Of a stretch of DNA of 64,000 nucleotides, positions 1,549 to 60,600 are shown in pieces. Position numbers and translations under genes: made by a program. The stretch spans positions 1-64,000 of the IMG/VR virus record IMGVR_UViG_3300007734_000761; one strand, 5' to 3'. Position 1 is the stretch's first letter; every line of letters starts with the position of its first letter. Below the pieces are notes generated by a model, which was not told where the DNA came from, searched no databases, and saw only the letters and a program-made list of their open reading frames with translations. The DNA is from a virus.

Positions 1549-1582
1549 ACTATACCATACAAAGTAAAATTTAAAAGGCAAA
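1546..1582 (-). promoter_or_regulatory. class I (early) promoter, leaderless
   Basis: TTGCCT-N16-TATGGT-ATAGT-ATG; one of 9 near-identical copies. Confidence 0.8.
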
Positions 1583-2344
1583 ATATTTTTTAAGTTTCTC
1601 TTCAGCTTTAATTTTAGTCAAACGAACACTTTCTTTATGTATACCTAATTCGTCTGCTATTTCTTTAATGTCCCAATCTTTACCATCTAAACCATAATAC
1701 ATAGTAAGCACTTTATTTTCACGTTCACTTAATTTTGAAAACAACTTATCAATAAGATCCTTATTAGAAACTTCTAAGTCAGGAATCAAAGCATTAGTAT
1801 TTTTAATTACGTCAAGTAGAGTACTAGTTTCATCTTCACCACTAATTGATTGTTGTAGATCAATTGTATTAGGTAAGTTTGACATTTCACTGTCTAATTC
1901 ACCTTTACCATCATTCAATTTTTTAATTTGTCTGTGTAGTTCTTGAGCTATGTTAATTGGCAGTCGAATAGTTCTAGCGTTTTCATAAATACAAGCCAAA
2001 ATACCTTGTTTAATCCAATGGTAACTGTAAGTAGTAAATCTATTTCCACTTGACCAGTCAAAGTTTTCAATAGCATTGATTAGACCTAAATTACCTGCTT
2101 GAATTAAATCAACCATATCTACACCTGCAAATTGAAACTTATTTACTTCTTTAATTACATAGCGCAAATAACCCTTTACCATTTCATCTTTCAGTTGTTT
2201 CTTTTCATCATCAGTAGTAAGTGGATCTAACATTTTACTTACAATTTCCTTTTCACGTTTTGGGTTCATTTGAGGCATTTTAGTAAGCTCCTTACTGTAC
2301 AGTTTAAAACTGTCATCATTTATCATTAGTCTTTTCTTACTCAT
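1571..2344 (-). CDS. RNA polymerase sigma70-family factor (RpoD/RpoS-like)
   Basis: Region 2 DLIQAGNLGLINAIENFD..RFTTYSYHWIKQ, RTIRLP; region 4 LSERENKVL..EIADELGIHKESVR. Confidence 0.95.
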   Translation of the reverse strand: MSKKRLMINDDSFKLYSKELTKMPQMNPKREKEIVSKMLDPLTTDDEKKQLKDEMVKGYLRYVIKEVNKFQFAGVDMVDLIQAGNLGLINAIENFDWSSGNRFTTYSYHWIKQGILACIYENARTIRLPINIAQELHRQIKKLNDGKGELDSEMSNLPNTIDLQQSISGEDETSTLLDVIKNTNALIPDLEVSNKDLIDKLFSKLSERENKVLTMYYGLDGKDWDIKEIADELGIHKESVRLTKIKAEEKLKKYFAF

Positions 2345-2378
2345 ACTATACTATACAACTTAATTTTAAAAAGGCAAA
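2342..2378 (-). promoter_or_regulatory. class I (early) promoter, leaderless, driving the sigma factor
   Basis: TTGCCT-N16-TATAGT-ATAGT-ATG. Confidence 0.8.
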
Positions 2379-2391
2379 AAAATTTTTATAT

Positions 2392-9135: not shown

Positions 9136-9169
9136 ACTATACTATACAAATTAATTTTTAAAAGGCAAA
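9133..9169 (-). promoter_or_regulatory. class I (early) promoter, leaderless
   Basis: TTGCCT-N16-TATAGT-ATAGT-ATG. Confidence 0.8.
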
Positions 9170-9798
9170 ACTTTATCTTTAAATTCTTCTTTAATGTAAT
9201 CTATAACAATTTGATAATATTCTTTATCTATTTTATTGCTATAAAAATTTTTTTTACTTTTATTTTCTATTTCATTTAAAGGATGTAAATTTCTTAAATC
9301 ATTAACAATATGGGGTGGTGTTTCATTATTAAACCATGTTATTGGTATTTTATGGTCTATATGGTCGGTTTCCCAGTTCATATTCTGCTTGTCTAAATGT
9401 TCTTTTAACTCTAAAGCTGAGTATTTTAATAAATCATGTGTTGATGCTTCTTTAGCTTTACCTAAACGTTTAACAGAATCCCACAATAAATCTCTCCATT
9501 TATACAGATGTGGATTTTGTTTTTTGTTTTTTATATGGTATAGTTTCATGTATGTTTTAAAATACTCACTATTTTTCTCCTTCCATTTATATCCTCTTTG
9601 TTTATGAATATCTGTATTGTTTTGATAATGGTTTTGGTGGTATTTGTTTATTTTATCTTTAAAAAGCAAATGATATTCATTTACACATTGTTTACATTTA
9701 GTTTGCAACCCATCACTATTAGCTTTACATTTACTAAATTCAGTTGTTGGTTTTGTCTGTTTACATTTACCACAGACCTTAGTCATATTTATACACAT
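9151..9798 (-). mobile_element. free-standing HNH homing endonuclease with N-terminal Zn ribbon
   Basis: CGKC..CKQC; HIDHKIP..NLHPL..EN..KKN; preceded by the late motif ATATTTAT although it lies in the early region. Confidence 0.85.
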
Positions 9799-13467: not shown

Positions 13468-14196
13468 TTAAAGTTTTTTTAATTTTAATTCTTCAATTAC
13501 ACAACTAGCCATTTTTCTGTGTCCTGAAGCTGTCATGTGACATAAGAAATCACCACAGTCAGTTCTTGAAATACAATGTGTTTTAATTACAACAGCTCGT
13601 TGAATTGAATCGACTAACATTTGTTGAAAACGAGCATAGCGTTGTGGATAACCTTGATAGGCTTGTCTTGTTCCTACATTAATACATGTTTTAGGATCAA
13701 ATCCTGTAATAACAATAGGTGTTACTTGATTTTTGTTACAAATGTCAACTATAGTTTGAATGTTTTTTACTGATTTTATTGGTGGTCTGTTTCCAGCCAT
13801 GTCATTTGCTCCACCATAAATAAAACAATAGTCAAAGTATTCTGTAACTTTAGCTTTGGCAACACCAACCATCCAAGTTGTTTGTTGTCCACCAACAGCT
13901 GTGTTTAAGTAAGTCATTCCTGTTTGTTTACAAACCTGATGTTGCCATCCGTAATCTGCAGCAGTATGTGAATCACCAATAAATAAAGCTTTTTTACCTC
14001 TTACAGAGGTTAAAGTTACAGGAATCACTTTAGGCGTGTCTATAACATTTGGTTTTACTGTGTCAAAAGCTATAAAAGCTGGCGACACACTAAGTGGAAG
14101 TTGACTTGCTAAAATTGAGGTGTAAATAATTGCTCCCCCAAACACTAATACTAGTGACGTAACTATAATATTTTTCATAAATTTAATTAGTATCAA
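13468..14196 (-). CDS. SGNH/GDSL hydrolase with N-terminal membrane anchor
   Basis: FIGDSHT, AVGG, YGGAND, DFLCH blocks. Confidence 0.88.
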   Translation of the reverse strand: MILIKFMKNIIVTSLVLVFGGAIIYTSILASQLPLSVSPAFIAFDTVKPNVIDTPKVIPVTLTSVRGKKALFIGDSHTAADYGWQHQVCKQTGMTYLNTAVGGQQTTWMVGVAKAKVTEYFDYCFIYGGANDMAGNRPPIKSVKNIQTIVDICNKNQVTPIVITGFDPKTCINVGTRQAYQGYPQRYARFQQMLVDSIQRAVVIKTHCISRTDCGDFLCHMTASGHRKMASCVIEELKLKKL

Positions 14197-14924
14197 AGTC
14201 CTTTCATTAACTTAGGTAAAATTTCAGTTCTAAATTTAGCTCTAATTCCATTTAAGCCTTGAACTGTAGGTGTTTTACCAGTTATTTGTCCAATAATTTT
14301 ACCTACCTCAGCAGCTGTCAATTCTTGGTATCTAGGATCTGTTGTCCATTTTAAAGCATATTTGTGAACTGGATTTTTAATTCCGGTTTCTAATTGTTTT
14401 AATCGTTTTTGAAACACTTCATTGTCCATCATTCCGTCAATGCGTTCTTGAGCTCCCATTTCACCCACAACATCAGCTACAGTTAATGCATCACCTTCTT
14501 TACTTGTTCCAATTGGTTTGTCTAATGAAATTGCTTTTCTTCTTGCTTTTTCTTTACCATAGTTGATAGTAGCATTTCTGATAGCCATTCTAGCATATGC
14601 TCCATATTCATTAGGCTTAGTCCAATCAAATTTTCTACTAGCACGAAGCATGGCTTCACTAGCATAACTAATGAAGTCGTCTACAGGAACACCATTACTA
14701 GCTGCTCCTACTTCTTTATACCATAAAGGCATAAGACGCAAATAACTTGAAATAACTCGTCTTTTTAAGTCTTCTTTAGTTTTGTTATCTACATTAGGAT
14801 CGTTTATTTGTTTTCTTATCGAAACACGTTCTTCACTAGACAATGGATTAAACTCGTCTCCTCTAACAGCCTTAACATATTCGTTCCAAGTAATTTCTAA
14901 TAACAGCTGTTTTAATGTAGTCAT
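14193..14924 (-). CDS. divergent sigma70-family factor with N-terminal LxE leader
   Basis: Region 1.2 NPLSSEER; region 2 VISSYLRL..DDFISYASEAMLRASRKFD..YGAYARMAIRNA; ISLDKPIG; region 4 LTAAEVGKIIG. Confidence 0.82.
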   Translation of the reverse strand: MTTLKQLLLEITWNEYVKAVRGDEFNPLSSEERVSIRKQINDPNVDNKTKEDLKRRVISSYLRLMPLWYKEVGAASNGVPVDDFISYASEAMLRASRKFDWTKPNEYGAYARMAIRNATINYGKEKARRKAISLDKPIGTSKEGDALTVADVVGEMGAQERIDGMMDNEVFQKRLKQLETGIKNPVHKYALKWTTDPRYQELTAAEVGKIIGQITGKTPTVQGLNGIRAKFRTEILPKLMKGL

Positions 14925-14931
14925 ATATAAT

Positions 14932-14992
14932 ATAAATATTAGAAGAGATTTGTTCTCTTATATAATATAATAAATTTATTTTTAAAGTCCAA
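14932..14992 (-). promoter_or_regulatory. tandem class II promoter and class III late motif upstream of the second sigma
   Basis: TTGGAC-N17-TATATT (14964-14992), small hairpin AAGAGA/TCTCTT, then ATATTTAT (14932-14939). Confidence 0.65.
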
Positions 14993-16604
14993 ATCTATTT
15001 CTCTGAGTATTAAAGTTTTGGTTAACCTCCGAAGCAGTAAACGCTTTACCTTGATAAACTTGAACTGTAGATATATCACCCTGGAAATTAGCTGCCCAAC
15101 TTCCTCCTATAATATCAATAGGATTATTATTTCCAGCATTGGTAGGAGAAATAGTAGTATCTAAAACACCATCTACATACATATCCATAGTGTAACCTAC
15201 TTTATTTACCCAAGTAAGCATATGCCAAGCTCCGTTGTTTACAGTTATAGTTCCTTGCCATCCTTTCCAACTATTTATGTTTGAGGGATAAACCCAATAT
15301 ACTATTTTACCTCCATTTATTCCCATCATAGAATAAACCGGACCACCATTTGAGTTAGATAAAACTGAACCAGCTCCTAAACCATTAGCAGCTGTTGTTG
15401 TTTTAACCCAAGCATTTACTGTCCAATTAGAATTTCCATCACCTAATGAAAAACTATAATTAGAATTATCTAATAAAATTCTATCATCAACTCCATCAAA
15501 TGACCAATAACCTCCATTTCCTGAATTATAACTAACTCCGTTTTGAAGAGTACCATTAGTACTACTAGTCATATTGTATGTAGTGGTACCAGTTCTAGGA
15601 TATGATTTTAAATTACCAGCATCCCATAAATGAGTTAAACTACCGGTTACTATAGGAGCTTGAAAATAATTTTGATTAACTTCAGCTTGGGTTAATGCTC
15701 TGTTGTATACTTTAAATACAGCACAGTCCATAGGCATATAATAACCACCATAGCCCCAAGTTGCTATAAACCCATTTCCTCCTGCAAAACTTTTACCACC
15801 TTCTCCACCATATTGTTGACTTAAAGTTTGTAAAATTCCATTAATGTAAATTTTATTATTAGTATAAGAAACATCACTTCTAAATTCAAAAATATAGTGT
15901 GCCCACCTATTAATAACACCTAACGAATTCACTGTAGATTGAGAAATACCATAAACGTCACCCCCACCGGTATTATATCCTATAGTTCCCCCATTGCACC
16001 ATACATCATAAGATGTATTCCACCCACAAAACATTTTTCCACTATACCCATCTCCAATTTTACATAACATTTCAATAGTAGCAATTGTTCCTAAATTAGG
16101 AGCGTAAAAAGGAACATAATCATCTGCTCCGTCAAATACAATAGCTCCGTTTGCATTAAATGTAAGACCATTAGTTAAAGTACCATTATTTGAACCCCCA
16201 CTTACATCATACCAAGTAGTTCCTGTTTTAGGATATGAAGATGCCATACCAGCATTTAAGTTTAATACTAAACCATTAGTTACACTAACAGGAATATCAT
16301 CACTAGAAGCAATAACTATTTTATCTGTTTGAGTAGAAAAGTAATCTAAACAAGCAGCAGCACTACCATATGTTGTTCCAGATATGTGTTTTGTAAAACT
16401 AATTAATGAAGCATCATTTGATGCTACATAAATGCTAGGACCACCAGATGCTTTGTATTGGTATATAACATATCCACCTGAAGGTGGCTCAACAGTAGTA
16501 TAAAAAGTAGATCCGTAGTCAAAGGCACCTGGTCCAATAGCCATGTTACCTTTTCTTAAACTACCTGAAGGAGTAGTTGTGCTGTATTTTACTACTTTAG
16601 GCAT
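14982..16604 (-). CDS. virion protein with two LamG/concanavalin A-like domains
   Basis: Two copies of IVTxGL..DAG..SYPxTGTTW..NGTL.NG..FDGxDD..YNRAL..EV.QNF. Confidence 0.88.
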   Translation of the reverse strand: MPKVVKYSTTTPSGSLRKGNMAIGPGAFDYGSTFYTTVEPPSGGYVIYQYKASGGPSIYVASNDASLISFTKHISGTTYGSAAACLDYFSTQTDKIVIASSDDIPVSVTNGLVLNLNAGMASSYPKTGTTWYDVSGGSNNGTLTNGLTFNANGAIVFDGADDYVPFYAPNLGTIATIEMLCKIGDGYSGKMFCGWNTSYDVWCNGGTIGYNTGGGDVYGISQSTVNSLGVINRWAHYIFEFRSDVSYTNNKIYINGILQTLSQQYGGEGGKSFAGGNGFIATWGYGGYYMPMDCAVFKVYNRALTQAEVNQNYFQAPIVTGSLTHLWDAGNLKSYPRTGTTTYNMTSSTNGTLQNGVSYNSGNGGYWSFDGVDDRILLDNSNYSFSLGDGNSNWTVNAWVKTTTAANGLGAGSVLSNSNGGPVYSMMGINGGKIVYWVYPSNINSWKGWQGTITVNNGAWHMLTWVNKVGYTMDMYVDGVLDTTISPTNAGNNNPIDIIGGSWAANFQGDISTVQVYQGKAFTASEVNQNFNTQRNRFGL

Positions 16605-16895: not shown

Positions 16896-17888
16896 TTAAA
16901 GTCCAAAGCGACCTTTTTGAGCGTTGTAGTTTTGGGTAATTTCTGATTGTGATAATACCCTATTATACATTTGAAAACTATAAACATTTCCATCTAACGG
17001 ATAATATGTGCCTCCAATTTGTAAACCTGTTAGATTACCCAATCCAGCACTTCCTCCTTCTATTGTTGTTAATAAATTACCATTTTTGTAAAACTTTATA
17101 TTTCCACTTGATAAACCGTTTCCATTATAGGTCATTGTAAAATGAAAAATCTGATTTGTAGGAAATTCACTAGTAGTTTGGGTAAAGTTCGTTTGGACTG
17201 CAGTGCTATTTTTTATAAAATACCAATAACTTTTTTGATCAGTATAAAATACATTTGTAACAATATAATGTGAACTATTGGATGAATTTAAATTAACTAA
17301 ACATTTATCACCAAGAGTATCGAGTTTCATCCATGAACTAAAGGACCAAGCTCTTGTTGACCAATCAATATTACCAAATGGGGAGGTTACTTGAACGTAA
17401 TCATCTACCCCATCAAACACAATTGAACCACTATTAGTAGAGTTAAATGTGGGTCCATTAGTTAATGTTCCATTATTAGAATTTCCACTTAAATCATACC
17501 AAGTAGTTCCTGTAGTTGGATATGAAGGATCGAACCCAGCATCCACATTTAACACTAAACCATTAGTTACAATTCCCTCATAATTAAAATTAACAACTAT
17601 TTTGTCTGTTTGAGTAGCAAAATAAGCTAAACATTGAGCAGCAGTAGTATAATTAGCTCCTGCTATTTGATTAGTTATACTAATTAATTGTGTATCGTTA
17701 GCAGGACAATAAATGCTTGGTCCACCACTAGCTTTATTTAAATAAATTGTGTAACCACCTGCTGGAGGATTAATTCCTGTGTAAAAAGCATTTCCTGTAT
17801 CAGCAGTATTATTGCTGATTAACATGTTGCCTTTTCTAAGACAACCTGCTTCAGTAGCTCCTGTTGAGTATTTTATTCCGTTAGGCAT
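16896..17888 (-). CDS. virion protein with a single LamG-like domain
   Basis: N-terminal domain paralogous to 14982..16604; LamG motifs; ends QNYNAQKGRFGL. Confidence 0.88.
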   Translation of the reverse strand: MPNGIKYSTGATEAGCLRKGNMLISNNTADTGNAFYTGINPPAGGYTIYLNKASGGPSIYCPANDTQLISITNQIAGANYTTAAQCLAYFATQTDKIVVNFNYEGIVTNGLVLNVDAGFDPSYPTTGTTWYDLSGNSNNGTLTNGPTFNSTNSGSIVFDGVDDYVQVTSPFGNIDWSTRAWSFSSWMKLDTLGDKCLVNLNSSNSSHYIVTNVFYTDQKSYWYFIKNSTAVQTNFTQTTSEFPTNQIFHFTMTYNGNGLSSGNIKFYKNGNLLTTIEGGSAGLGNLTGLQIGGTYYPLDGNVYSFQMYNRVLSQSEITQNYNAQKGRFGL

Positions 17889-26200: not shown

Positions 26201-26608
26201 CTATTTTTCATCTGGACCTGCAGGTAAATCTTCGTCTCCTGCTTCTGCTTTAGGAACATTACCACCAATAATATTTTTCATAATATATTGAGACAATGAA
26301 TCTAAAGGAATAATAAAACCTATTGCTGTTAATTTATCTTCGAAGTCCTTGTCACGATCAACTATAATATCGTACTTGGAAAATTTTCTTTGTAAGTAGG
26401 CTGCTAAATCGTTTCCAACTTCATTCAACCGAGTTCCGTCCAATTGGGAACTGTCCTTAGGATAAAATTGCATTCGAACACCTACTTTTGTTGGGTTTTT
26501 ATTTACGTCAAACTTTACAGACCAATCGTATCCACCAAATTTAGTTGAATAACGAACTGGTCCAGTTATATTTGAAACTTCATTTAATATATTAGTTAAA
26601 CTAATCAT
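26201..26608 (-). CDS. putative internal virion protein with LxE leader
   Basis: MISLTNILNE; late motif ATATTTAT at 26617-26624. Confidence 0.6.
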   Translation of the reverse strand: MISLTNILNEVSNITGPVRYSTKFGGYDWSVKFDVNKNPTKVGVRMQFYPKDSSQLDGTRLNEVGNDLAAYLQRKFSKYDIIVDRDKDFEDKLTAIGFIIPLDSLSQYIMKNIIGGNVPKAEAGDEDLPAGPDEK

Positions 26609-42154: not shown

Positions 42155-42895
42155 TTAAGGTTTAAAAGCGTCTTTAAACGTAAATAAGGTTTTATAAATT
42201 TTAGAAGTTTGAGGAATTATTTTATTACCATATGGGATTTTTTCTCCTGTTAATGGATCTTTAGTATTATTTTTATCACGATTAACAGCATCAAAGTCAG
42301 CTTTAAGTGAATCAGGTAAACCAGAAGCCATTAATGACTGGAATGCGTATGGAGAATACATTATAGTTCCATCTTCTTCGTAGTACTGTAAATTATCATT
42401 AGAAAATAAATCATTTGCTAAGCTACGTAAGTCTTTTACTTTAACCTTACCTGGCATGACAGGGGCAATTTGAGGAGAAGATTTAGCAGCAACTGATGCT
42501 CCTTTATTTTTAAATGAATTTATGTCAGCCTTAGCTGTTTCACGTTTTATTTTTTCAGCTTCTGCTTTAGGTACAGGATTAGGTGTTAATTTAGTAACAG
42601 TAAAAAGTTTTTGTATAGCTTGGTTGTTGTTTGCTAATTCATCAGATAACTTTAAAATGTATCTATACATGTAACCATCATTACTAGTATCTGTTGTTGG
42701 AATAACTTTACCACGTTTTTTAAGATCAATAATTTTAGAAATAAGTGAACCTAATACTTGTGATTCAGGAAGGATATTTACTGTGTATCCATTCATGTCT
42801 AAGTCGTTTGCATGTACACGATAAGTATTCCACAACGGATCTTTAGGATTAGAAACTCTAGCAGCTTCTGGTAATAAAGATGATAATGTTATCAT
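42155..42895 (-). CDS. putative internal virion protein with LxE leader
   Basis: MITLSSLLPE; late motif at 42900-42907. Confidence 0.65.
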   Translation of the reverse strand: MITLSSLLPEAARVSNPKDPLWNTYRVHANDLDMNGYTVNILPESQVLGSLISKIIDLKKRGKVIPTTDTSNDGYMYRYILKLSDELANNNQAIQKLFTVTKLTPNPVPKAEAEKIKRETAKADINSFKNKGASVAAKSSPQIAPVMPGKVKVKDLRSLANDLFSNDNLQYYEEDGTIMYSPYAFQSLMASGLPDSLKADFDAVNRDKNNTKDPLTGEKIPYGNKIIPQTSKIYKTLFTFKDAFKP

Positions 42896-42909
42896 ATTAA
42901 TAAATATTG

Positions 42910-42984
42910 TGGACCCTGTAGGGTTTGAACCTACGACCCCCTGATTATGAGTCAGGTGCTACTGACCAACTGAGCTAAGGGTCC
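42910..42984 (-). tRNA. tRNA with CAT anticodon, likely Ile2 (lysidine type)
   Basis: GGACCCTTAGCTCAG..CCTGA-CTCATAA-TCAGG..GGTTCAAA. Confidence 0.9.
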
Positions 42985-42990
42985 ATTTAG

Positions 42991-43064
42991 TGATTCCGAC
43001 AGGATTCGAACCTGTGACCTACAGCTTAGAAGGCTGTTGCTCTATCCAGCTGAGCTACGAAACC
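42991..43064 (-). tRNA. tRNA-Arg(TCT)
   Basis: ACAGC-CTTCTAA-GCTGT; T-loop GGTTCGAATCC. Confidence 0.95.
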
Positions 43065-43069
43065 ATTTG

Positions 43070-43143
43070 CTCCCCGAGCTGGACTCGAACCAGCGACCTA
43101 ATGATTAACAGTCATTTGCTCTAACCTACTGAGCTATCGAGGA
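43070..43143 (-). tRNA. tRNA-Asn(GTT)
   Basis: AATGA-CTGTTAA-TCATT. Confidence 0.95.
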
Positions 43144-43160
43144 ATCTGTCTTCAGCGGCG

Positions 43161-43231
43161 TTACCCCCCAGAGATTCGAACTCCAATTAACTGGACCAAA
43201 ACCAGTTGTCCTGCCGTTAGACGAGAGGGTA
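43161..43231 (-). tRNA. tRNA-Gln(TTG)
   Basis: ACTGG-TTTTGGT-CCAGT. Confidence 0.93.
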
Positions 43232-43236
43232 ATATT

Positions 43237-43311
43237 TGCTAGGTCACCACCTCCACCTAGCATGAGGAGATTTAACGTGATTTCTTTCTTGCACTAGAAG
43301 AACAGGCCTCC
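43237..43311 (-). ncRNA. unassigned structured RNA (two hairpins)
   Basis: GGAG..CTCC (43266-43311) and TGCTAGGT-GGAGGTGGTG-ACCTAGCA (43237-43262). Confidence 0.5.
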
Positions 43312-43343
43312 TTTGTTCACGAACCCGAATTGGTATTAAGGTG

Positions 43344-43430
43344 CGGAAGATGTAGGATTCGAACCTACGGAACCTTTTAAAGTTCAACAGTTTTCAAGAC
43401 TGCCGCGATCGACCACTCTGCCAATCTTCC
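43344..43430 (-). tRNA. tRNA-Ser(TGA)
   Basis: GCAGT-CTTGAAA-ACTGT with long variable arm. Confidence 0.95.
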
Positions 43431-43434
43431 GTAT

Positions 43435-43503
43435 AGTGGAGCGTCACTTATTTCTAAGTTATCCACTTCGGTTACGTTATCTTGCGATAAGAGGCTTTAC
43501 CGA
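43435..43503 (-). ncRNA. unassigned structured RNA (two GNRA-capped hairpins)
   Basis: TCGGT..TTATC-GCAA-GATAA..ACCGA abutting AGTGGA..ACTTA-GAAA-TAAGT..TCCACT. Confidence 0.6.
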
Positions 43504-43511
43504 GCCCAAGG

Positions 43512-43583
43512 TAGTCAGGACAGGATTCGAACCTGTATTTGCAGACCCTTTCGAGCCCGTGGTTACCATTCCGCCACCTGACT
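43512..43583 (-). ncRNA. tRNA-like RNA lacking a canonical anticodon loop
   Basis: Acceptor AGTCAGG/CCTGACT-A; T arm ACAGG-TTCGAAT-CCTGT; anticodon arm replaced by CGGGCTC-GAAA-GGGTCTG. Confidence 0.75.
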
Positions 43584-43587
43584 AAAA

Positions 43588-43731
43588 AACCCTAGCAGTT
43601 TCTGTTGATCAGGCAGGCTTACTAGGGGTTGTTACTGGTTATACCCGAAAGCTTTCCCAGTAACTCGAAGACCATCGGGCAGATCTTACGGGATGCTGGA
43701 TGGTACATTGCCTACAGATACTATCTATAGG
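43588..43731 (-). ncRNA. unassigned structured RNA (four consecutive hairpins)
   Basis: Stems at 43711-43731, 43671-43704, 43631-43664, 43590-43627. Confidence 0.6.
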
Positions 43732-43733
43732 GG

Positions 43734-43807
43734 TGGTTGCGGACGACAGACTCGAACTGCCAATTTAAGGTTATGAGCCTTATGTGTTACCATTACACTA
43801 ATCCACA
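43734..43807 (-). tRNA. tRNA-Met(CAT) with encoded CCA
   Basis: TAAGG-CTCATAA-CCTTA; ends GTCCGCA-A-CCA. Confidence 0.88.
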
Positions 43808-43814
43808 ATATTTG

Positions 43815-43887
43815 AGCCACCTGTAGAAATCGAATCCACAACCTACTGAGTACAAATCAGTTGCTCTACCAGTTGAGCTAAGGTGGC
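43815..43887 (-). tRNA. tRNA-Thr(TGT)
   Basis: ACTGA-TTTGTAC-TCAGT. Confidence 0.93.
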
Positions 43888-43901
43888 TTGTAAAAGAACT
43901 A

Positions 43902-44096
43902 TTACTTCTTTAACTCTACGATTTCTGTATGAAGTGAATCAGCGTGAGCATTAGCACTCTCAATAAGAGAATCAATATTCATAGAATCAGAACAAGTTGA
44001 GTCAGCACATTTCAAAGTGTCAACATTAGAAGTAGAGGTTTCGTTTGAGCAAGAAGCCAAAGTAACCAAGGCAGCGATAAATAATACTTTTTTCAT
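43902..44096 (-). CDS. small lipoprotein
   Basis: MKKVLFIAALVTLASC lipobox; late motif upstream. Confidence 0.8.
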   Translation of the reverse strand: MKKVLFIAALVTLASCSNETSTSNVDTLKCADSTCSDSMNIDSLIESANAHADSLHTEIVELKK

Positions 44097-44123
44097 TTGA
44101 TATAAATATATAGTTTTTTAATT

Positions 44124-44531
44124 TTATTTGTTTTTACCCGTATATGTTTCTGTTTGTGAGTGACAGTTTGGACATAAGAATCTTAAATTTTCAATTCTAT
44201 GATCCCAACTCTTCCCATTTATGTGGTCTAAATGAAGAGATATTGGTTTATTATTCCATTCATTTAACCCACAATTACAACATACATATGATAACAAGTT
44301 CTCTTTTAGAATCCTATTTTTAATACCTCTTCTAGATTGTATTTCTGAAATATCCTTTTTATCAGGAATAGGTTTCGATTTTGTTCTCCAACCTTTTTCA
44401 GGATTATACAATCCTTCTTTTTGAGCTCTTGTTTTAAATGTATTAAAATGCCATCCTAACTTTGAACAAGCTTCTTGCATTGAATCTGATGATTCAATTG
44501 CTTCTTTAAGTTTATCTACATCGTAATTCAT
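44124..44531 (-). mobile_element. HNH homing endonuclease in the tRNA cluster
   Basis: CCNCG..LHLDHING...DHRIENLRFLCPNCHSQT. Confidence 0.9.
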
Positions 44532-44535
44532 TTAG

Positions 44536-44619
44536 TACTGTAGGTGAGACTCGAACTCACACAACCCTGCGGGTTACTGCCTCTTAAGGGCAGCGCGTCT
44601 ACCATTCCGCCACTACAGC
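44536..44619 (-). tRNA. tRNA-Leu(TAA)
   Basis: CTGCC-CTTAAGA-GGCAG with long variable arm. Confidence 0.95.
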
Positions 44620-48434: not shown

Positions 48435-49774
48435 AACAGTAATTTGGCTCCCATTAATATTTGATAGTTAAGTACACTCTGAGTAGCAATATAAGTACCA
48501 CCGCCGGTTAATCCAACTCCAAATGTTTTAGTCAGTTTATAATTAAAGTTAAAGAAGGGAATAACGATTGGCTTTGATTCAAATAAAGACTCTGTGTAGT
48601 ACTTAGTATAAGGGGAATACACACAGGCAGCAATAATAGTAGCATCTAAAGCTTTTGCTAACTTACCTTTATACATAAACCCTCCAATTGCTAAAGTTGA
48701 AATCATTTCTTCTCCGTAAAGATTTCCATAAGTTCCAGCTCCTCCATAAAGTGCTGTAAAGTTCTTAACTGAGTTTACTCTTACAAATAAAGCTGTATTA
48801 GACCAAGATTTAGGTAAAATACCAAAAGCATCTGAAACGACGTTAATGTGTTTGTTACCTTTCTTATTTATTCCAATCCAAGATCTCATTACTGAAAGGT
48901 TTCCAATTCGAGCATTAACCATGTAATCAGCTGAAAATCCTAATGAGGCTGTTCCATCTCCTTTTACTCGAGTAAATGACATAGTTCCTCTAGCATCTCT
49001 AGAACCATCGTCTGCTTTTTGTACTCCAACAATATCCCCGGTAACTAAGATTGCAGGCTTGGCAACCTCTGCTTTTGCCTTTGAGGTTGATTTAGCTGTT
49101 GAATTAGAAGACTCTTTTTGAGTTTCGGTTTTTTGTTCCTCTACTTGTTGTTCAGTTGATTTATCTTCTGTTTTTGGTTCTTCTGTTTTACCTTGCCCCG
49201 ACCCTGAACCGGATCCGCTGCCATTGCCACTGCTACCAGAAGAGGAACCACTGTTACCACTAGAATTGCCACTGTTTGAATTATTACTTCCATCGGGGTT
49301 CTGGTTCGTATTCGACTGAGGATTTCCATCTTCTTGTTTATTATCTGAGGTACTAACCGATCCTGAACCCGTTGAAGTTGCTCCGCCTACATTTGTTCCC
49401 ACTGACGTGAATGACCCGACGTTTGCAATAGCATTTAAATTCATTACACTATTAACAACATTCGAAGCCAAGTTAGTCGATGTGGTTGTTGTAGTTGTAG
49501 CTACAGCCCCTTGACATGGAGAGGTTGACTTGTATTTGTTATAAATATCATTCAACCATATGTCAAATGTACCATCTTGTAATTCTGTGTAGTTAAATGT
49601 CTTTACTTGTCCATAATAAACAATTACTATAGGACTGTTCATATCAGCTGTTATAAACTTGCTTTCTTTCGTGCAGGGATCAATATAACTAAATAAAAAA
49701 GATTGAGAATAACTAAGTTTTGATATACATAACAATATCAATAATAAGAGTGTTTTATATAAACTTCCACCCAT
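48431..49774 (-). CDS. secreted/outer-membrane protein with G/S-rich linker and probable C-terminal beta-barrel (start likely Met 49774)
   Basis: Signal peptide KTLLLLILLCISKLSYS-Q; low-complexity linker; alternating beta-strand pattern ending NYQILMGAKLLL. Confidence 0.7.
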   Translation of the reverse strand: MGGSLYKTLLLLILLCISKLSYSQSFLFSYIDPCTKESKFITADMNSPIVIVYYGQVKTFNYTELQDGTFDIWLNDIYNKYKSTSPCQGAVATTTTTTSTNLASNVVNSVMNLNAIANVGSFTSVGTNVGGATSTGSGSVSTSDNKQEDGNPQSNTNQNPDGSNNSNSGNSSGNSGSSSGSSGNGSGSGSGSGQGKTEEPKTEDKSTEQQVEEQKTETQKESSNSTAKSTSKAKAEVAKPAILVTGDIVGVQKADDGSRDARGTMSFTRVKGDGTASLGFSADYMVNARIGNLSVMRSWIGINKKGNKHINVVSDAFGILPKSWSNTALFVRVNSVKNFTALYGGAGTYGNLYGEEMISTLAIGGFMYKGKLAKALDATIIAACVYSPYTKYYTESLFESKPIVIPFFNFNYKLTKTFGVGLTGGGTYIATQSVLNYQILMGAKLLL

Positions 49775-50354
49775 ATCCTTTAATAGTTTTACAAAGTCCT
49801 CTACAACACATAGAAATATTTCCATTGGGTATATTGTAATATAGTGTAGGTTCTTTTAATGAATCCCATATTTTTATTAAATTTCCATTTAAATCAAACT
49901 GGCCTACTTTTTTATATTTTTTCTTATTTTCTTCAGTTCTGTCTCTTTCTTTTTGTATTTTACTTATTTTAGATAAACCTTCTGGTGTGTGAAAGTTTAC
50001 CCCTAAATGAGTTTCTCTCATTCTTTGTTTATTATACTCACTTTGTTTTTTACCTTTCATTGGAGATACTCTACCAACATAAAGGTTACTTCTATATTGT
50101 TTTTCTTTATCATTCATTATTTGTCTACCTCCACCACCATTGTTTTTATTTTCTAAAACATAACCCCAATTTTTAAATAAACTAATATAATAACCCTCCC
50201 AAAAAACCCATTCATTATCATTTACAGTATCAATAATAAAATAACTTGTTGGTTGTTTTTTATTTTTATGTTGACCTATTCTACTAGAAGTATTTTTTGA
50301 TTTTCCAATATAAAAAGGAATATTATTTTTTTCTAAAACATATATATCTATCAT
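49755..50354 (-). mobile_element. GIY-YIG homing endonuclease with NUMOD3/NUMOD1 domains
   Basis: DIYVL..FYIGKS..R..H..E..N; SPMKGKKQSE; QFDLNGNLIKIWDS..ISMCCRG..GYGWK. Confidence 0.9.
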
Positions 50355-57878: not shown

Positions 57879-59303
57879 TTAAGAAATAACTTTACCAGCA
57901 GTTCCAGGAGGTACTCTGTCAATTTTTGTTCCTCTGATGTCTAGTGTTCCTCCTACTTTTAAACCAGGAGGTAAAGTTAAATCAGGGTTATTAGAAATGT
58001 TGAAGTCACCTGTTATAGTTAAATTGCTAGGAAGTGTTTTAACACCTGTTGATGAAATGTTAGCATTACCTTGAATAGTAGGTCTAGCGGTTTCAGGAAT
58101 ATTAATGTTTCCTAAAATTCTAATCATTAGCCAGTTTTTGTAAGCTTCTCCAGGTAAAGTTTCTTTACTAAGAAGACTATTACCTTCATTGTCTTTTTTA
58201 TTTGCTAAAAATTTCATTAAAGAAATGTAAGGGAATTTTAACGCTTGTTTAGCTCCAGCTTCTGTACCATCACTAGTTTTCAATAAACCTGTGTTAGAAT
58301 CGTAATAAACTAAATTGTTACTTTGATCAGCTCCTGTTTTGGCATCTATGTAATATGCAGGTCCCACTTTATAAATAGGGAAACCATCAACTACGTCTTC
58401 TTTAAATTTACTTAAGTCTAAGTCAAAAGCCATTGATTTGGAAGGTATTCTACCTTCTTTATCTAATAAGAATTGTAAAAATTCTTTTTGAACAGGACTA
58501 TTATAAGATCTAATTTCTGAATCAGATTCATCTTTTAACTGACCTGACTCATAGTGTAATTGATATTGTCTTCTTGTATTCCAGTTTTTAAATAAGTAGT
58601 AAGGACCATTAGATAAGTAACTATTGAACATACCTGTGTTTCTAGTACACCAAGTTACTCTATATCCTGATTTAGGTGCTTCTTCTTTTTCTTTACTAGG
58701 AGTAAATCGTTGTTCTTGGTCTCCACATCCTGTTATTTCTAAGTATTTTCTATAACAAGCCTCGTCTCCTTTACATTTTTGTGGAACTTTATAAACTGTA
58801 AAACCTGAAGGTGTTTGTCCTAAAATAGTAATAGGAGCAATAAAAGCTCCTCTAAGTTTTTCAGGTCCAGCTTGAACTTCTTCAGCACCACCTTCAATTT
58901 TTGCTTTGGCAACACCTATAATGTTTTCAAAGTCTCTTAAAGTCTTATAAAGGTTAATGTCTGGTTGAAAACCATCTACATTTAATTTTTTAATTCTTTG
59001 TTTGTTTTTATCAAAGAATGGCAACAATAATTTTACTTCTTCATTGTGACCATCATCAAAGAATCTTTTTCTTTCAGTACGATCTAACTTTACATAGCGA
59101 GGTATTAACCAGTTTAAGTAAGTTCCGTTAGGTGTTTCATCAATGTCTACTAATGCTTTAAACTCTTTTTCACTGATTTTATTTGGATCCATAGAACCCA
59201 TTCCCTTAGGAGCGTCTTTGTCCACTTGTTGAACAAACTTAGTTTTTAACGCTGCTTCTTTTTCAGCCGATAACGCTTCTGCAAGTAAGTCTAGTAATCG
59301 CAT
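57879..59303 (-). CDS. putative internal virion protein: LxE leader, central WCT..YL..GPYY domain, C-terminal LRR-like repeats
   Basis: MRLLDLLAE; LPSNLTITGDFNIS / LPPGLKVGGTLDIR. Confidence 0.7.
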   Translation of the reverse strand: MRLLDLLAEALSAEKEAALKTKFVQQVDKDAPKGMGSMDPNKISEKEFKALVDIDETPNGTYLNWLIPRYVKLDRTERKRFFDDGHNEEVKLLLPFFDKNKQRIKKLNVDGFQPDINLYKTLRDFENIIGVAKAKIEGGAEEVQAGPEKLRGAFIAPITILGQTPSGFTVYKVPQKCKGDEACYRKYLEITGCGDQEQRFTPSKEKEEAPKSGYRVTWCTRNTGMFNSYLSNGPYYLFKNWNTRRQYQLHYESGQLKDESDSEIRSYNSPVQKEFLQFLLDKEGRIPSKSMAFDLDLSKFKEDVVDGFPIYKVGPAYYIDAKTGADQSNNLVYYDSNTGLLKTSDGTEAGAKQALKFPYISLMKFLANKKDNEGNSLLSKETLPGEAYKNWLMIRILGNINIPETARPTIQGNANISSTGVKTLPSNLTITGDFNISNNPDLTLPPGLKVGGTLDIRGTKIDRVPPGTAGKVIS

Positions 59304-59397: not shown

Positions 59398-59856
59398 TTA
59401 AAAATTCACTATAATAATATTGTTAATACCTGGAAGTTGATTTTCTAACTCTTCTTTATCAAATTTTTTAGAATTTAAAACTAAATTTCCATTAACTATT
59501 AAATCATCAGGAAAAGATGTGAGATTTTTACAATTAAGAAGATCTAAATCTCCTCTCACTATTAGTCCTTTTGGAAGAGAATTAATTTTAGTGTTAGATA
59601 AACTCAAATAACCATCAATTTCTAAATAATCAGGAAGAATAGTTACATTACTTCTAGATAGATCTAAATACCCATCAATGTATTCTACATTTGCTAGTAA
59701 TTCATTAACATTTGGTGCTTTAGTCAATTTATACCCAGAACTAAATTCTGAATTTCCTTTTTTATAAGGTTTTAATTGAGAATTTTCTTCATTTAAACGA
59801 GATTGGAAAGTGATTTTATTCTCTACTAAGAATTTTTTTAGGTCAAAATTGTCCAT
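59398..59856 (-). CDS. putative internal virion protein with LRR-like repeats
   Basis: MDNFDLKKFLVE..RLNE; LPDYLEIDGYLSLS, LPKGLIVRGDLDL, FPDDLIVNGNLVL. Confidence 0.72.
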   Translation of the reverse strand: MDNFDLKKFLVENKITFQSRLNEENSQLKPYKKGNSEFSSGYKLTKAPNVNELLANVEYIDGYLDLSRSNVTILPDYLEIDGYLSLSNTKINSLPKGLIVRGDLDLLNCKNLTSFPDDLIVNGNLVLNSKKFDKEELENQLPGINNIIIVNF

Positions 59857-59880: not shown

Positions 59881-60600
59881 TTATTTTTTATATTTCCAGA
59901 GATAGCCACCAGCTTGTTTTTGTTTACCTGCTAAGCATCCTGCTATATCTCCTTTTCCTAACCACTTTTCAGCTTCTTTTCTACTAGGCCAATCTTGAAT
60001 AAAGTTACCTTCTAAATCATACTGAGTGATTGGTTTATTATTTCTTGTTTTTCCTATGCTTTTATTAAGTCTTTTTTGTATATGTTCTTGAGATTGAGGT
60101 CCTTTTGGTTTTCTCATTTTTTGTTTAGTTTCTTCAGTTCTTGGTTGACCCTTAGGATAGCCATTTTTTCCAATCATATTTTTTCTATTTTCTTCAGTTC
60201 TTGGTTGACCTTTAGGATAGCCATTAGTTCCAGTTTTACTAATACTCTGTTTTATAGCCATTGTATTTTTTTCTTCTTCACTTCTTTCATCCCACATTTG
60301 TTTAGCTTGTAAACTTTTATTATGTTTTTGTTCTTCAGTCCAACTTTCCATTCCTCCCCCTCCTTCTTTTCTTGGATTTACAACATCAAAACCCCAACCA
60401 ATAAAACTTTGTATCCACATTGTTTCTATTGGTCTCCATTTTTTTCTATCTAAAGAATCTACTTGGTCAATAATAATATAATCCTCACTACCATAAGTTC
60501 TTTTATGGTCATTTTTTCTTTTGTTAGGATTTTTAGTTTTTCCTATATAAACTTTATTAGAATCTCCATAACAGTTTTCAACTAAATAAATGTAAGTCAT
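59881..60600 (-). mobile_element. GIY-YIG homing endonuclease with NUMOD repeats, directly downstream of polB
   Basis: YIYLV..VYIGKT..R..H..E..N; QYDLEGNFIQDWPS..GGYLWKY. Confidence 0.9.
60131..60225. repeat. 35 bp direct repeat, 60 bp period (NGYPKGQPRTEE x2)
   Basis: tcttcagttcttggttgacc(c/t)ttaggatagccatt at 60131 and 60191. Confidence 0.85.

Follow-up and report, generated by a model that had tools for sequence, protein, structure and literature searches.

Phages are known to take over host transcription by modifying the host RNA polymerase, by making new sigma factors after infection, or by injecting a complete polymerase. Virion-packaged RNA polymerases occur in N4 (virion RNA polymerase, vRNAP), in phages with a phiKZ-type virion polymerase, and in crAss-like phages. 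The internal proteins of T-even phages are highly diverse and have only their targeting sequence in common (PMC3012670). The first 10 residues of T4 IPIII are enough for packaging, mutagenesis in T4 assigned targeting mainly to residues 4 and 7 and processing to residues 8 and 10, and T4 Alt is an injected modifier of the host polymerase (PMC9026906). Here, we describe a sigma factor gene, sigma-B, whose product begins with what looks like such a targeting sequence and may be packaged in the phage head and injected with the DNA. The gene lies in the first 64 kb (positions 1 to 64,000, hereafter the window) of a 176,311-bp virus record, IMGVR_UViG_3300007734_000761, which CheckV rates as complete.

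The record represents an uncultured, T4-like phage of Flavobacterium-type bacteria. A Bacteroidota host is indicated because one protein of the phage carries a type IX secretion sorting domain and because the nearest cultured relative is Flavobacterium phage vB_FspM_immuto (NC_055915, hereafter immuto), whose capsid protein is 49% identical. The head genes are T4-like and comprise a gp23-type capsid protein (phrog_138, expect value (E) 2e-70) and a gp21-type prohead protease (Peptidase_S77, PF03420, E 4e-32), with an acidic scaffold protein encoded between the two; portal, terminase, sheath, and tube genes are present as well. The genome has a GC content of ~30%, and the minus strand carries 180 of its open reading frames (ORFs) of at least 100 amino acids (aa), the plus strand just 3. 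A megablast search with 20 kb of the window returned no match.

Profile searches and the predicted fold together confirmed sigma-B as a genuine but divergent sigma70-family protein with regions 1.2 and 2 and, as judged from the model, a C-terminal region 4-like helix-turn-helix (HTH). Pfam Sigma70_r2 (PF04542) scored 24.1 bits against a cut-off of 24, and 25.9 bits in a whole-genome scan that found exactly three Sigma70_r2 genes in the phage. NCBIfam SigK/SigE-type models covered residues 25–192 (E 1e-11; 37–44 bits against cut-offs of 252–349), TIGR02937 covered residues 68–212, PHROGs assigned the protein to the sigma family phrog_351, and sigma factors were the only matches in a PDB search with the sigma-B family profile. 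An AlphaFold 2 (AF2) model built on 32 sequences had a mean predicted local distance difference test score (pLDDT) of 83, and all of its top Foldseek and VIA-align matches were sigma factors. VIA-align placed residues ~6–11 to 243 onto residues ~92–610 of E. coli sigma70 (Z ~12), and the sigma2 domain superposed at a root-mean-square deviation of ~3 Å over ~115 residues. A preliminary description of this DNA had recognized sigma70 regions as far as region 4; Pfam, the PDB profile, and the model bear out region 1.2, region 2, and the C-terminal HTH, while support for region 4 comes from structure only, namely the alignment of the model through to sigma70 residue ~610, and the Pfam region 4 profile had no match at E up to 1. 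The ORF opens at the first possible start codon after the upstream stop. We considered a wrongly called start and rejected it: there is no earlier in-frame start, the next ATG is codon 65, and homologues align from M1.

The sigma-B family is small, with 79 representatives at E ≤ 1e-3 and 12 at E ≤ 1e-10 among 1.8 billion proteins. A tblastn search of 50,697 GenBank phages gave one weak match and no cultured orthologue. Scanning viral contigs with sigma-B itself recovered one relative at 95% identity; five further scans (viral contigs with P0007, P0026, P0033, and the alignment; metagenome contigs with P0007) found no divergent relative, and the last metagenome scan returned only relatives at 93–97% and strangers at 30%.

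The first 10 residues of sigma-B, MTTLKQLLLE, read as a putative T4-type capsid-targeting propeptide, with a predicted cut after E10 and a predicted mature start at ITWNEY. When all N-termini in the genome were listed, a recurrent start, M-I-K-L-x-x-L/I-L-x-E, emerged on at least nine proteins that have no mutual similarity beyond this leader and mostly belong to no known family. A position-specific scoring matrix (PSSM) was trained on nine other leaders, with sigma-B excluded from training. It ranked sigma-B first among 196 non-training N-termini (12.9 bits vs 5.9 bits for the runner-up), within the leave-one-out range of true members (11.4–22.1 bits). Three of 54,392 internal windows scored as high, and the chance expectation for the score is ~0.01. 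Residues 1–9 have a pLDDT below 50 and are the sole low-confidence N-terminal stretch of the AF2 model; because they are disordered and the alignment to sigma70 region 1.2 begins at residue ~6–11, the leader appears to be a module outside the sigma fold. It is kept in sigma-B homologues of 46, 33, 30, 25, 25, and 22% identity (e.g. MILLKHLLLE, MILLENILLE, and MITLKSLLVE), and the nearest canonical sigmas from the same homologue search are without it.

Sigma-B bears L4, L7, L8, and E10, and the positions conserved among the leaders of this phage (4, 7, 8, and 10) coincide with those that have a known function in the T4 capsid-targeting sequence. Like those of T4 IPI, IPII, IPIII, and Alt, the leader is 10 residues long, with hydrophobic residues at 4 and 7, L or I at 8, and E at 10; the earlier proposal of a T4-style leader is sustained by these positions and by the presence of a gp21-type protease. 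A T4 control with the same regular expression recovered IPII and IPIII (MKTYQEFIAE), Alt, gp24, gp22, and gp21. The PSSM was not transferable to T4, whose N-termini score low. The major capsid protein of the present phage starts with MSTINQLLE and so resembles T4 gp24 (MAKINELLRE), whose N-terminal propeptide is removed by gp21.

The leader family also matches the T-even pattern of unrelated proteins with only an N-terminal tag in common. Its members are encoded by six consecutive small genes (genome 136677–140009) and by genes at 26201, 42155, 145974, and 168019, with variants at 57879 and 138497. By analogy, the six-gene tandem cluster resembles the T4 internal-protein locus, and a gp21-type protease and late expression are shared with T4 as well. 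The leader had been claimed for four other late-motif genes of the window, and all four proved real, each with a late motif (Table 1); one of them belongs to a family with a second leader type, of which the phage has a single further paralogue and immuto four copies. Immuto carries the same leader on two proteins and a related MENFDLKKFLVE start on four. Identical leader residues are encoded by different codons in 108 of 225 comparisons, which argues for selection on the leader peptide and not on DNA; this synonymous variation led us to reject a DNA-level constraint of leaderless late mRNAs as the origin of the leader. Unlike the T4 internal proteins, the cargo here would be a sigma factor rather than an ADP-ribosyltransferase or restriction inhibitor, the leader sequence is phage-specific, and packaging is putative. 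As cargo that would reprogram the polymerase of the host as infection begins, sigma-B would be analogous to Alt.

Two further members of the leader family have features of their own. A Zeta-toxin-family P-loop kinase (genome 145974–146816, minus strand; Pfam E 5e-12) has the leader, the late motif, and no internal L/I-x-E, and is a candidate injected enzyme. The C-terminal motif of the scaffold protein (124494–125894), R-M/L-Q-x-L-A-G-L/I, recurs at the ends of other proteins, and the 429-aa protein encoded at 168019 has both the N-terminal leader and the scaffold-type tail.

A removable N-terminal extension on a sigma factor is also known from Bacillus pro-sigma-E and pro-sigma-K, and sigma-B could be a pro-sigma of this style, activated by the head protease so that very late transcription is coupled to head assembly in the same cell. 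Its N-terminal propeptide looks cleavable, and SigK and SigE are its best NCBIfam matches, aligning only after the leader. However, these matches reach ~40 bits, far under the family cut-offs of 250–350, the Bacillus factors have an unrelated leader, protease, and cellular logic, and no fourth promoter class was seen. Moreover, gp21-type proteases act inside assembled T4 proheads, so a cut sigma-B would be trapped in the head. We therefore regard a pro-sigma as very improbable.

Next, we consider when sigma-B would be made. The octamer ATATTTAT (the late motif) lies 7 nucleotides (nt) upstream of its ATG, as had been described. Genome-wide, the motif occurs 58 times on the coding strand (~16 expected) and 7 times on the other strand (~21 expected). 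It is found within 60 nt upstream of 48 genes, mostly 4–6 nt before the ATG, and heads the portal, sheath, tube, and baseplate-hub genes. Because of this short distance (e.g. at 16896, 17904, and 57108), most late mRNAs would lack a 5' leader or have only a very short one. The motif is a -10-only element with no conserved -35 or upstream partner, and the T4 late promoter is likewise -10-only. Leaderless mRNAs make up only 5.5% of the total in Flavobacterium psychrophilum (PMC9723704). Upstream of sigma-B, the late motif is the sole promoter-like element that is invariant in five close relatives; the start region is also invariant, and the sequence further upstream changes. These features suggest that sigma-B would be made late in infection from a structural-gene promoter.

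The late motif itself is probably read by another protein. The preliminary description had noted two sigmas, and both sigma-B and the gene at 1571, sigma-A, are indeed sigma factors; it had missed a third, sigma-C, which lies beyond the window. Over 4,800 proteins make up the sigma-C family, which shows remote similarity to that of sigma-B (hhalign E 2e-5). The sigma-C model folds like a two-domain sigma, with only weak sigma matches and no gp55 entry in Foldseek, and an hhalign comparison of its family with T4 gp55 alone was uninformative. Sigma-C has an orthologue in immuto (42%), which is the only match to phrog_234 (gp55) in that phage, and a weak one. It is also the only sigma of the present phage found in immuto, which uses the same late motif (51 copies vs 9). 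Sigma-C is probably the late sigma and the counterpart of gp55. Sigma-B shares with T4 gp55 (PHROG 234) that it is a phage-encoded sigma-family protein of a T4-like phage with a -10-only late promoter, but it is longer and keeps a region 4-like domain; a search of the genome with phrog_234 and phrog_12791 at E up to 10 was negative, and so was one with T4 gp55 as the query.

A second promoter had been proposed for sigma-B, of the type that we call class II. The sequence TTGGAC-N17-TATATT does exist upstream of the gene and agrees with the class II consensus in both sequence and spacing. Its -35 half falls within the final codons of the upstream gene, and four of the five close relatives do not have it; that upstream gene itself differs in close relatives. 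Between this site and the late motif is a short hairpin, whose stem the relatives retain via changed bases (judged by eye, not statistically) and which may be a weak terminator or processing site.

With a correctly spaced class II-type site followed by a late motif, sigma-B could be an ordinary intracellular middle or late sigma, made from these two promoters, whose leader is a mere resemblance or has another role and brings no useful packaging. It would then read ATATTTAT with autoregulation, or a small further promoter set. Most phage sigmas work in this way, and residue conservation continues past E10. Against this stand the leader score, which at a chance expectation of ~0.01 falls inside the range of true members, the disorder of the leader and its place outside the sigma fold, and the poor conservation of the class II -35 half. 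The late motif consists of a -10 element only, yet sigma-B has an HTH domain, and immuto uses the motif with sigma-C and without sigma-B; the earlier suggestion of an autoregulated late sigma is weakened on both counts. We consider an intracellular role unlikely, although it is to be taken seriously.

The remaining promoters fall into two classes. Class II comprises 28 sites genome-wide (TTGG(C/T)T-N17-TATAAT), including those of the DNA polymerase (60615), the clamp loader (39962), and the sigma-C operon. Class I comprises nine sites (TTGCCT-N16-TATAGT), all between 1 and 11 kb of the window (e.g. 2345–2380 and 9136–9170). Four of the nine abut an ATG, which implies leaderless early mRNAs. 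The flavobacterial housekeeping -7 box is TAnnTTTG at -12 to -5 (PMC9723704). Class I had been described as unlike host promoters, and this is true of the TTTG of the -7 box, which is absent in all nine sites, but not of the TTG, which is retained at a host-type distance (N19) before a box starting with TA. Host-type promoters (TTG-N18-21-TAnnTTTG) are not enriched in the phage, with 7 on the coding strand against 4–22 in simulations and none in the early region. In immuto, which has neither sigma-A nor sigma-B and no class I or class II motifs, 16 early promoters lie on one strand at 60–76 kb (AGTTGCC-N-TATATTTAGGTATCAATAATTAA, or TTG-N20-TATATTTAGG) and are near the Bacteroidota housekeeping consensus. 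Because of this comparison, the simplest mapping assigns the late motif to sigma-C and class II to sigma-A, a candidate reader of these promoters. This would leave class I to host sigma-A or to a sigma present at time zero, and a late-made, head-tagged sigma-B fits the latter. We infer this time-zero role from one comparison together with the logic of the cascade.

As a side observation, class II sites resemble canonical E. coli-type promoters, which is unusual for a Bacteroidota phage, and several lie just after a GC-rich, terminator-like hairpin (GGCTTGG...CCAAGCC plus a T run).

If host sigma-A reads class I, sigma-B could still be packaged and injected, acting as a sigma mimic that occupies the host core polymerase or titrates a regulator and so serves host shut-off or the blunting of defence. 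All of the packaging evidence applies equally to a mimic, class I keeps the host-type TTG-N19-TA architecture, and T4 Alt already exemplifies a modifier of the host polymerase that is injected (PMC9026906). Nevertheless, sigma-B keeps both of its DNA-reading parts, with region 2 scoring over the Pfam threshold and the C-terminal HTH aligning with region 4. There are also three non-host promoter classes to match the three phage sigmas, and every class I site is without the host TTTG. A mimic thus seems improbable to us.

Collectively, the sigma identity of the protein, its leader shared with late genes, the T4-type prohead protease, and the agreement with the T4 functional positions make packaging of sigma-B in the head and injection with the DNA the best-supported reading; judged from sequence, we hold its chances to be about even. 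That sigma-B also starts class I transcription is somewhat doubtful. The complete scheme, in which a virion-delivered sigma starts early genes at promoters that the host cannot read and thereby sets off a three-step cascade independent of host promoter recognition, is put forward tentatively. In this scheme, the tag would dock sigma-B to the scaffolding core of the prohead, and the gp21-type protease would cut after L-L-E10. The mature, basic protein of ~27 kDa would be kept in the head and, like T4 Alt and the internal proteins, accompany the DNA into the next cell. There, it would bind the host core RNA polymerase ahead of all phage protein synthesis and read the nine class I promoters, which are without the host TAnnTTTG box and which drive sigma-A. 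Sigma-A would then read class II (TTGGCT-N17-TATAAT), and sigma-C, as the gp55 counterpart, would read ATATTTAT. Packaging, cleavage, injection, and promoter assignment of sigma-B are each steps that we infer. As in phages with a virion RNA polymerase, particle-borne transcription machinery would free the early genes from host promoter recognition; those phages, however, deliver a whole polymerase, whereas sigma-B would be a specificity subunit for the host core only.

Several observations weigh against a packaged sigma that starts early transcription. ITWNEY, directly after the leader, is also conserved in homologues, so that conservation of the leader could in part be ordinary N-terminal conservation. 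Sigma-B contains no internal L/I-x-E site, against 2.2 expected; depletion of these sites is not significant in the sigma homologues (12 vs 17.9 expected), and the leader proteins as a group are not depleted (27 vs 25.9 expected). The well-spaced class II-type site means that sigma-B may be produced ahead of prohead formation and be active in the cell that makes it, and the host-type TTG and spacing of class I mean that host sigma-A may read these promoters unaided. The closest cultured relative, immuto, is without a sigma-B orthologue. A literature search found no virion proteomics for this phage group. We also found no description of a packaged sigma factor in full-text literature, a search that left most subscription journals uncovered and returned only T4 reviews and unrelated genome papers.

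Table 1. Positions of sigma-B, its upstream elements, and related features (genome coordinates where indicated, otherwise window coordinates).
Feature	Position	Strand	Evidence
Sigma-A, canonical regions 2 and 4, no leader, directly behind class I promoter	1571..2344	-	Domain search
Class I promoter of sigma-A, TTGCCT-N16-TATAGTATAGT, abutting ATG	2345..2380	-	Motif scan
Sigma-B coding sequence (leader-tagged sigma factor, 243 aa, stop included)	14193..14924	-	Pfam, NCBIfam, PDB profile, AF2 model
Putative leader of sigma-B, codons 1–10, MTTLKQLLLE, capsid-targeting type	14895..14924	-	PSSM, pLDDT, homologue conservation
Late motif ATATTTAT, 7 nt upstream of sigma-B ATG	14932..14939	-	Motif scan, alignment of relatives
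Short hairpin, 6-bp stem, between class II-type site and late motif	14943..14959	-	By-eye reading
Class II-type site TTTGG-N16-TATTATATTA, 38 nt upstream of sigma-B ATG	14963..14993	-	Consensus fit
Leader-bearing late gene, 135 aa, no known family	26201..26608	-	Late motif, leader PSSM
Leader-bearing late gene, 246 aa, no known family	42155..42895	-	Late motif, leader PSSM
Late gene, 9-residue leader variant, 474 aa	57879..59303	-	Late motif, N-terminus
Late gene of MDNFDLKKFLVE family (second leader type)	59398..59856	-	Late motif, N-terminus
Sigma-C, third sigma-like gene, outside window	Genome 165384–166139	-	Sigma70_r2 cut-off passed
Scaffold-tail motif copies	Genome 168019–169308 (C-terminus); 142379–142726 (N-terminus); 82462–84195 (N-terminus)		

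Other genes of the window were noted in passing. Next to sigma-B, two late concanavalin/LamG-type lectin-like proteins (14982–16604 and 16896–17888) have a near-identical N-terminus and both end in RFGL; they probably represent modules for receptor binding or decoration that have been swapped. Nine tRNA genes cluster on the coding strand (42909–44619), with late motifs on both flanks, and one of them (43510–43583) was called with an odd two-base anticodon loop. Three GIY-YIG-like genes (window 49755–50354 and 59881–60600; genome 73866–74390) start with M-x-x-I-Y-(L/V)-(L/V)-E. Both of those inside the window bear the late motif, as T4 homing endonuclease genes carry late promoters.

An injected sigma factor, if true, would add a fourth and much cheaper route to the known ways in which phages take over transcription, and would explain early promoters that are unlike those of the host. 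The T4 capsid-targeting pathway would also prove to transport regulators in addition to anti-restriction proteins. The leader could serve as a natural tool to load proteins into Flavobacterium phage heads. With three sigmas paired to three clean promoter classes, the cascade lends itself to direct testing in Bacteroidota, where promoter logic is unlike that of E. coli.

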